Positions 2,581-3,651 of a DNA stretch of 25,312 nt are shown here, one piece after another. Source of the stretch: a virus (taxonomy: Duplodnaviria; Heunggongvirae; Uroviricota; Caudoviricetes); IMG/VR virus record IMGVR_UViG_648276668_000012, one strand, 5' to 3'. A program made the translations under genes and the position numbers. The stretch's first letter is position 1. Each line of letters opens with the position of its first letter. The notes below the pieces were generated by a model, which saw only the letters and a list, made by a program, of their open reading frames with translations, did not search any database and had not been told where the DNA came from.

Positions 2581-3651
2581 TTATCTTCTATAGGTCAAAA
2601 GGTGAATTAATATATATATTGCAATAGCTAGGATTGCTCCACATATATAATATGTGCCTGTCGGTATGAATTTAAGAATAAAAGCAAAGGCGGCACCATA
2701 TATCAAGTATGCGAAAATTTTACTGAATTTTGTTTTCGTGTTTTTAAACTTCACAACAACAGAGAAGTCATTTAGTCTTGCTTTTTTATCATTAACAATC
2801 TTCCAATGGTAAATCATAGGATCGTGATCACCAAATGAAATATCCTTATCGAAATATTTTGTCCATGTTTCAGACTCTAATATTCTACATCCTTTATAAC
2901 TTGAACCAGATGCTGAACATTCATCAACAATATCTCTAATGATAAACAAATGTGTTTTTAAAGGCGTACAAGCGGCGCTCGCCAGAGTTGTAGCGATTTC
3001 TGAAGGTAGGTTTCTTTGTTCATTGATCCTAAAGTCAATAATATCAGAACGCTCAATATTGCTTTTGAGAAAGAGATCTTTGGGATAAAATGTTTTTACT
3101 AAAATACCTATATCATCAATGTTGAGTTTAACGCGAAATCTCAAGTAATGTGGAGCGTCCTCTGAAGATAGGCAATCTTTTAGCTTGAAAACAATAAAAG
3201 TACCATTATGTATTTTAGTTACCTTAACTCTACGGTCAAGTTCACCACCACTAAAAGTTAGCTTTGTATTAACAACTAAATCACCTTTATTCGCGAGTAC
3301 TAATTTTAAATGTCTGACGTCTACAGTTTTGGTATTAATAAGATACTCATTAAAAACAGCCGTTACGAGATCTCGGCTTGACTCGAGATTTTCACTAAGA
3401 TCCGAAAAAAAACAGTTTTCTTTCTCAAATGGTAAAAATATGCATATTGCGCCATGATTTGCAATAGTATCGTCATCGGGTTTTTCAAACGTAATACCAA
3501 AATCTAAATAACCAAATTTATGAGCACTTAGATTCCAAAAGTTTATATGCAACTCATTAATAAAATTCTTGTGTTCAGGGTTATAGGTCGAGCTCGAATC
3601 ACTGCGATAATCCCTGCATCCCCAGACAGCAAAACTTTTTGACATAAACAT
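2581..3651 (-). CDS. Hypothetical protein with a C-terminal two-TM hairpin (354-356 aa)
   Basis: The N-terminal ~300 aa are soluble with no motif I recognise. The C-terminus FSKIFAYLIYGAAFAFILKFIP and YYICGAILAIAIYILIHLL forms two hydrophobic helices. SD AAGGA favours the second ATG at 3645. The gene starts only 22-28 nt after the cI stop. Confidence 0.6.
   Translation of the reverse strand: MFMSKSFAVWGCRDYRSDSSSTYNPEHKNFINELHINFWNLSAHKFGYLDFGITFEKPDDDTIANHGAICIFLPFEKENCFFSDLSENLESSRDLVTAVFNEYLINTKTVDVRHLKLVLANKGDLVVNTKLTFSGGELDRRVKVTKIHNGTFIVFKLKDCLSSEDAPHYLRFRVKLNIDDIGILVKTFYPKDLFLKSNIERSDIIDFRINEQRNLPSEIATTLASAACTPLKTHLFIIRDIVDECSASGSSYKGCRILESETWTKYFDKDISFGDHDPMIYHWKIVNDKKARLNDFSVVVKFKNTKTKFSKIFAYLIYGAAFAFILKFIPTGTYYICGAILAIAIYILIHLLTYRR

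Follow-up and report, generated by a model that had tools for sequence, protein, structure and literature searches.

A large unnamed family of predicted membrane-anchored proteins is strictly associated with GNAT/ASCH gene pairs in prophages and integrase islands

Gene X is a minus-strand gene of the 186/P2-like prophage recorded in IMG/VR as IMGVR_UViG_648276668_000012, whose 25,312 nucleotides (nt) are called the window throughout. It encodes a protein of 354 amino acids (aa), in which a large soluble domain is followed by predicted C-terminal membrane helices, and it is followed by the genes gevT (a GNAT-EVE acetyltransferase) and gevA (an ASCH protein). The GNAT/ASCH module is already a known candidate system; what is new is its strict association with the large, unnamed, membrane-anchored family to which X belongs. 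A previous sequence-only reading of this DNA had assigned the gene to a cargo operon and had proposed, as an alternative, that it acts as a separate single-gene exclusion factor. The functional link to the operon was borne out, as a GNAT and an ASCH gene were found at all 61 homologue loci that could be judged, while the alternative was not supported, as X was never seen without the pair and the pair was without X in 70 of 80 loci. X and gevTA would together form a tripartite variant of the known candidate system, of which X is likely the overlooked third part.

Loci were gathered from assemblies, species-representative genomes (which supplied three loci only), IMG/VR and JGI metagenomes, and their six-frame open reading frames (ORFs) were compared with profiles for ASCH, long GNAT-EVE, short GNAT and AAA_17 proteins built from verified seeds. 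X was carried by 112 loci, 61 of which have at least 1.5 kb of flank on both sides, and in every one of these 61 both an ASCH and a GNAT gene lay within 1.5 kb of X. When X was clustered at 60% identity, the two genes were linked to it in 22/22 clusters, and AAA_17 was present as well in 13. The seven loci at which neither ASCH nor GNAT was seen are all interrupted by a contig end beside X. The association is also local, since the ASCH, GNAT and AAA_17 profiles gave 238 matches within 3 kb of X and none in the 222 kb of flank lying farther away. Pfam independently confirmed the GNAT, AAA_17, PIN and EVE domains in sampled neighbours. In about half of the clusters, X is paired with a short GNAT of 155-213 aa, without EVE and PIN domains. 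At least eight gene orders were observed, often with overlapping reading frames, including the following:

X > GNAT-EVE > ASCH, in P2-like prophages
GNAT-EVE or PIN-GNAT-EVE > ASCH > X
PIN-GNAT-EVE > X > ASCH
AAA_17 < ASCH <, then X > short GNAT, in Vibrio and in marine and soil contigs
ASCH > X > short GNAT
Mixed orders, at further X loci

The hosts of these loci include Enterobacterales, Vibrio, Sinorhizobium and diverse metagenomes, and the loci sit in prophages, in integrase islands and beside GmrSD. Because the linkage persists across rearranged gene orders and across a divergence that reaches down to about 25% identity, there is strong evidence that X is functionally coupled to the GNAT/ASCH pair. 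At some loci (L016, positions 5001-9239; L033), a short GNAT beside X was accompanied by a long (PIN-)GNAT-EVE, an ASCH and an AAA_17 gene; judging from this arrangement, X and a short GNAT may constitute a cassette with which an already complete module of the gevTA type can be supplemented.

The reverse dependence was evaluated on the best 80 of 272 GNAT-EVE loci in IMG/VR, of which all 80 contained ASCH and only 10 contained X. Set against the complete linkage seen from the side of X, this is the pattern of an optional accessory: X depends on the GNAT/ASCH pair, and the pair does not depend on X. In the loci lacking X, the gene upstream of gevT was a repressor (47 loci), a 260-aa soluble protein with a Cys-rich C-terminus (9), a member of the 8xMP family (7) or, in the rest, some other gene. 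X was absent from all 16 isolated phages carrying gevT. Complete E. coli genomes with this gevTA clade numbered 35, and seven of them have X; the other 28 carry a 75%-identical gevTA pair and gave no megablast match to X, and the two of these 28 that were inspected have the 260-aa gene in the X slot instead. The two recurrent occupants of the slot are exemplified by the following genes:

L021 5423-6205, minus strand (E. coli WP5-W18-ESBL-11), and L019 4216-5001, plus strand: 260-aa soluble protein, unrelated to X, with a C-terminal CxxC...CxxC
L141 3382-3990, plus strand: 202-aa protein of the 8xMP "octameric membrane protein" family (PF24838, E 2e-25), directly upstream of gevT

The sole match of the 260-aa protein is a weak one to DUF3644 in PADLOC (E 2e-5), and it is either an alternative partner of gevTA or an independent moron. 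A similar 8xMP gene was found upstream of gevT in six further IMG/VR contigs, its product being a membrane protein unrelated to X. For the short GNATs, a scan of viral contigs returned a single locus, without X, and one locus is too small a basis for assessing the dependence in this direction. As a single case, a short GNAT of the clade that accompanies X is encoded on a 76-kb viral contig (L195 4001-4504, plus strand), where no X, ASCH or AAA_17 gene lies within 4 kb.

On the basis of their profile matches, both genes downstream of X are assigned to the PADLOC candidate system PDC-M11. They are located in the window as follows:

1852..2553, minus strand: gevT N-terminal fragment (233 aa), GNAT-EVE acetyltransferase; PDC-M11A E 6e-79, phrog_6345 E 2e-85
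1478..1711, minus strand: gevT C-terminal fragment (77-aa ORF), EVE-domain end; PDC-M11A E 4e-22 and frame analysis
1135..1506, minus strand: gevA, ASCH protein of 123 aa; PDC-M11B E 4e-49, Pfam ASCH E 3e-6

Operons made up of (PIN-)GNAT-EVE and ASCH genes, with or without AAA_17, were reportedly described by computational means by Iyer et al. in 2013. The same operons, which correspond to PDC-M11, are also described computationally in the part of Bell et al. (2020; PMC7641849) considered here, according to which the GNAT-EVE form is common in beta- and gamma-proteobacterial prophages, toxin-antitoxin-like behaviour is predicted, and AAA_17 is a frequent accessory. That part of the paper mentions no membrane protein, and none is listed for PDC-M11 in PADLOC. 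In the literature searched, the name "PDC-M11" appears only as PADLOC output in one preprint. In the lambdoid phage PhiR47_2 (PV340567.1), the pair lies between cI, which it follows directly, and the kil-gam-bet recombination genes (L020 3231-5417), and its members are annotated as "GevT toxin" and "GevA antitoxin".

A possible chemistry for these labels comes from the GxKxxExR (GKER) octapeptide; of 84 distinct ASCH neighbours of X, 79 carry it, including GevA of the window (G18-T-K-K-F-E-F-R25). The Lys and Glu of this motif are reported to be required for tRNA N4-acetylcytidine (ac4C) deacetylation by GKER-type ASCH proteins (preprint 10.64898/2026.02.27.708502), and YqfB of E. coli is an ac4C amidohydrolase (PMC6972931). 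This suggests that the ASCH "antitoxin" may be an enzyme that reverses the GNAT modification; because the GKER motif is linked to ac4C deacetylation, a GNAT writer and an ASCH eraser would provide a plausible chemical basis for the toxin and antitoxin labels.

In the window, gevT is divided between the 233-aa and 77-aa ORFs, whereas it is intact (359 aa) in E. coli A30; the shorter ORF aligns to positions 284-357 of the 357-position PDC-M11A profile. Compared with A30, the window has deletions of 1, 2 and 1 nt near 2285, 2257 and 1871, respectively, all in A/T homopolymer runs. The frameshifted gevT could be a real pseudogene, with loss of the toxin, or a homopolymer sequencing artefact. The gevT copy of a sister prophage in E. 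coli MFDS1006657 (L022) is likewise "frameshifted". The description of X as the first gene of a cargo operon was right about its position, as it is the first gene after cI in a block between int and cI that has 29-33% guanine plus cytosine (GC), versus 47-60% in the phage backbone, but it has to accommodate the fact that the next gene, gevT, is broken in the window.

The gene X itself is intact. Its limits and the parts of its product are as follows:

2581..3645, minus strand: gene X, 354-aa protein (ORF listing, translation, homologue starts, PGAP)
2731..3645, minus strand: soluble all-beta domain, residues 1-305, probably cytoplasmic
2668..2727, minus strand: predicted membrane helix 1, residues ~307-326 (hydropathy, AlphaFold2), preceded by KFKNTKTKFSK; family-conserved segment
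2587..2655, minus strand: predicted membrane helix 2, residues ~331-353 (hydropathy, AlphaFold2), followed by the C-terminal RR; present in part of the family only

The minus-strand ORF at 2581-3651 is open for 356 codons counted from its first ATG and ends with a TAA stop codon at 2581-2583. Initiation at the upstream ATG (3651) would yield 356 aa; the true start is probably the second ATG (3645), yielding 354 aa, because an AAGGA sequence lies 7 nt upstream of it, versus only 1 nt from the first ATG, and because MSRSFA opens all the homologues and PGAP gives the 354-aa form. This PGAP call is found in the E. coli A30 relative, whose copy of X is separated from that of the window by six substitutions.

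The hydropathy of X, calculated according to Kyte-Doolittle in windows of 19 residues, exceeded the threshold of 1.6 only at residues 311-329 and 329-355, where it reached a maximum of 2.27; within the first 290 residues, the maximum was 1.08. The AlphaFold2 model, built with 33 homologues (pLDDT 84.7, pTM 0.79), showed an all-beta domain to about residue 305, followed by helices at 307-326 and 331-353. Both methods therefore agree with the soluble region and the two hydrophobic C-terminal helices ending in RR that had been seen in the letters alone. Helix 1 is preceded by six lysines, the loop between the helices has about 4-7 residues, and the C-terminus reads YRR. According to the positive-inside rule, positively charged flanks stay cytoplasmic; given this rule, the lysines before helix 1 and the terminal RR, the large domain and the C-terminus of X should both face the cytoplasm. 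As modelled, X would be a tail-anchored inner-membrane protein with the C-terminal helical hairpin as its anchor.

Although X had been regarded as an orphan, it belongs to a large family. A word-indexed search retrieved 34 close relatives, from Enterobacterales, Aeromonas and Vibrio, and an exhaustive profile search of 1.84 billion representatives (clusters at 50% identity) retrieved 1,304 clusters at E <=1e-3 and 512 at E <=1e-30, with lengths mostly between 300 and 440 aa among the 150 best matches. The earlier remark that the protein has no recognizable motif was confirmed, as X had no significant match in Pfam, PADLOC, PHROGs or NCBIfam. Nor did the family profile match any PDB sequence at E up to 1. 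Among 96 diverse members of the family there was no credible Pfam or PADLOC match: PADLOC gave three marginal unrelated matches only, and its model for CARF proteins with two membrane helices matched one of the 96 marginally (E 0.0035).

In the same 96 members, the residues N35, G50, P72, F98, N99, Y167, R169, R171, N208, R254, E257 and W261 are invariant, and W8, H33, W37, D48, D204, F205, R206, R211 and Y264 are nearly so. All of them are located within the soluble domain. On predicted strands, three groups of conserved residues (H33/N35/W37, Y167/R169/R171 and D204/R206/N208) are spaced at i, i+2, and this pattern in the predicted secondary structure suggests that one face of a sheet in X, polar and aromatic in character, is conserved. 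The membrane part varies more than the rest of the protein and shows little conservation of sequence. A C-terminal hydrophobic segment starting near residue 306 was found in 204 of 206 sampled members, about 117 of which have one helix and about 87 two or more, the second being missing in the more distant relatives from Aeromonas, Cedecea and Vibrio. The two-helix hairpin is a trait of a subfamily, not of the whole family.

The soluble domain resembles generic beta-sandwiches, namely the N-domain of M1 aminopeptidases, OST1 (ribophorin I) and VIT-type domains, with TM-scores of about 0.33, sequence identities of 7-10% and a high root-mean-square deviation. The domains matched serve for substrate binding or as scaffolds, and the similarity therefore gives no ground for assigning an enzymatic activity to X. 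The identification of X as a peptidase was rejected, as the HExxH zinc site is absent from its sequence and the similarity is only to the fold of the non-catalytic N-domain. The identification as a holin or lysis protein was also rejected, on account of the wrong position of the gene and its large conserved soluble domain.

In the window, the block that contains X is bounded by two genes:

3674..4327, minus strand: CI repressor (Pfam Phage_CI_repr and Phage_CI_C, E ~1e-30)
1..1056, minus strand: integrase (Pfam Int_N and Phage_integrase), last gene of the cI-X-gevT-gevA-int block

The same order, cI-X-gevT-gevA-int, was found in prophages of E. coli and Serratia, and near-identical prophages adjoin rcdA/ybjJ in seven complete E. 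coli genomes. The plus strand of the window carries cII, Fil, Dam and the replication gene A, followed by the head and tail genes. X is probably co-transcribed with cI in the lysogen, because the gaps are short (28 nt between cI and X and 27 nt between X and gevT) and no terminator-like site was found on the minus strand between cI and int. A promoter scan returned sites at no more than chance frequency, and a private promoter for X is neither claimed nor excluded. The prophage has a second cargo slot of lower GC, between the replication gene A and the late genes, that contains two genes:

9749-10054, plus strand: DinI-like protein (PF06183, E 1e-22)
11088-11633, plus strand: SieB-family superinfection-exclusion protein (PF14163, E 2e-22)

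Taking these results together, we lean, by a little, toward a reading in which X, tethered to the membrane, acts as an adaptor or sensor through which the acetyltransferase/deacetylase pair is positioned or gated, a judgement that includes its being an accessory of the GNAT/ASCH module. This latter part is well supported by the linkage. The Arg, Asn and aromatic residues of the soluble domain would bind GevT or GevA, or else a nucleotide- or RNA-type ligand, and the membrane helices would serve as the anchor. In this way, X would keep both the acetyl "writer" (GNAT) and the putative "eraser" (GKER ASCH) at the inner membrane, or gate them there, and a membrane event, such as the entry of a phage genome or a perturbation of the envelope, would lead to the release of the toxin. 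The reading brings together the topology, the co-transcription, the binding and the defence role that we infer for X. As to the choice between effector and anchor that the sequence-only reading had left open, the conservation pattern speaks more for an anchor joined to a domain that binds a ligand or partner than for a module devoted to pore formation, because the number of helices varies between one and two while 12 residues of the soluble domain are invariant.

Several observations weigh against the adaptor or sensor reading. The roles of sensor and effector are both compatible with the tests run here, and the generic beta-sandwich matches yield no clue to function. X is fused to ASCH, GNAT, AAA_17 or another partner domain in none of the 206 sampled members, so that a physical interaction with its partners is deduced from synteny alone. 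If the gevT frameshift is real, X adjoins a dead partner in the window. The slot upstream of gevT also takes apparently independent cargo in sister prophages. Moreover, the toxin and antitoxin labels come from a single GenBank record, and no paper on GevT/GevA or on PhiR47 was found.

The most serious competitor, which we hold possible but distinctly less probable, has X as a membrane effector that is turned on by the GNAT and ASCH proteins, or by a product that they write and erase. Its helices would then oligomerise and render the inner membrane depolarised or permeable, causing abortive infection, in line with the effector role that the sequence-only reading had considered. A soluble domain joined to C-terminal helices does resemble the known sensor-plus-membrane effectors, such as CBASS Cap15, the Pycsar membrane effectors and RexB, and X depends strictly on the GNAT and ASCH genes. 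X could even be the only killer in the roughly half of clusters in which the GNAT is short, without EVE and PIN. On the other hand, the membrane part is the least conserved, with one helix in about 117 of 206 members and two in the rest; GNAT-EVE is itself annotated as a toxin, with X missing from 70 of 80 of its loci; and no PADLOC effector model matches X. Cap15, the Pycsar effectors and the two-helix CARF proteins form a comparison class of ligand-gated membrane effectors, and they share with X a beta-rich soluble domain with one or two membrane helices. However, the operon of X contains no signal-producing cyclase, and its helices are C-terminal and poorly conserved.

A bolder version, to which we give little credence, would make X the reader and effector of a writer-eraser-reader immune circuit. 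Phage defence would then include a branch that signals through acetylated nucleotides or acetylated RNA and uses a new receptor fold. The acetyl mark would be put on a nucleotide or RNA by the GNAT and removed by the GKER ASCH as long as the cell is uninfected; the conserved Arg, Asn and aromatic residues of X would capture the acetylated product at the inner membrane, leading to membrane failure or toxin release.

We consider it unlikely, and slightly more so, that the module is a small-molecule or nucleoside pathway, in which an AAA_17 kinase, an acetyltransferase and an ASCH N-acyl amidohydrolase modify or salvage a nucleoside or antibiotic-like compound and X is a receptor or an aid to export or import. 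Such a pathway would account for the AAA_17 kinase-like genes that accompany X in 13 of 22 clusters, for the hydrolysis of free N4-acetylcytidine by some ASCH proteins (PMC6972931; 10.64898/2026.02.27.708502) and for the Cedecea locus, where X lies among ordinary chromosomal genes. Most loci, however, are in prophages, in integrase islands or beside genes of restriction type (e.g., GmrSD), a transporter would need more than one or two membrane helices, and the long GNATs bear EVE and PIN domains, which are nucleic-acid-directed according to the part of Bell et al. (2020; PMC7641849) considered here.

That X is an independent moron, for example for superinfection exclusion, which merely shares the cI-int slot with gevTA, is very improbable: what occupies the slot upstream of gevT differs among sister phages, with unrelated genes present there, gevTA is a unit without X at most loci, and cargo of this kind is common here, as the separate SieB-like gene of the prophage illustrates, but the linkage in 61/61 loci and 22/22 clusters runs through at least eight gene orders, extends outside P2-like prophages (e.g., to Vibrio integrative islands and Sinorhizobium) and leaves zero linked-gene matches more than 3 kb from X, while X is unlike the known exclusion families (no Pfam, PHROG or NCBIfam match), whereas the SieB-like gene of the window was readily detected.

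With respect to known systems, the closest is PDC-M11/GevTA, as the same GNAT-EVE and ASCH genes lie downstream of X and the AAA_17 accessory is common to both. X is no listed component of it, and because no defining PADLOC profile matches X, we propose it as an unlisted accessory and not as a recognized component. Two further differences are that X is found in a minority of the modules (10/80) and that half of the X clusters have short, EVE-less GNATs. In phage lambda, rexAB lies directly downstream of cI, the position occupied by gevTA in lambdoid phages. Like RexA/RexB, X-gevTA has this location next to the repressor, a presumed expression in the lysogen, and soluble and membrane parts. RexB, though, is a polytopic membrane protein with four helices, whereas X consists of a large beta domain and a predicted one- or two-helix tail anchor, has no sequence or fold similarity to the Rex proteins, and is partnered with an acetyltransferase and an ASCH protein, not with RexA. 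Kiwa (KwaA/KwaB) and Zorya (ZorAB) also couple a membrane part genetically to soluble, nucleic-acid-directed partners, as the adaptor or sensor model would have it for X. Their membrane sensors are polytopic or motor-like and have no homology to X (no PADLOC match), whereas X would be mostly cytoplasmic and is dispensable for most versions of the module.

Attention was drawn to (PIN-)GNAT-EVE/ASCH modules in 2013 and again in 2020, as conflict systems that are widespread in phages and defence islands. Database entries treat them as candidates with two genes, to some of which X would add a membrane-tethered third part. The invariant residues, truncation of the helices, and the natural two- and three-gene versions in sister E. 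coli prophages offer handles on its role, and inclusion of the X family would better the annotation in defence-system databases.

Finally, the window contains a third low-GC cargo island (~35% GC), situated among the late genes at 20483-21780 on the minus strand, in which two ORFs without a Pfam or PADLOC match, of 314 and 118 aa, lie in the same orientation.

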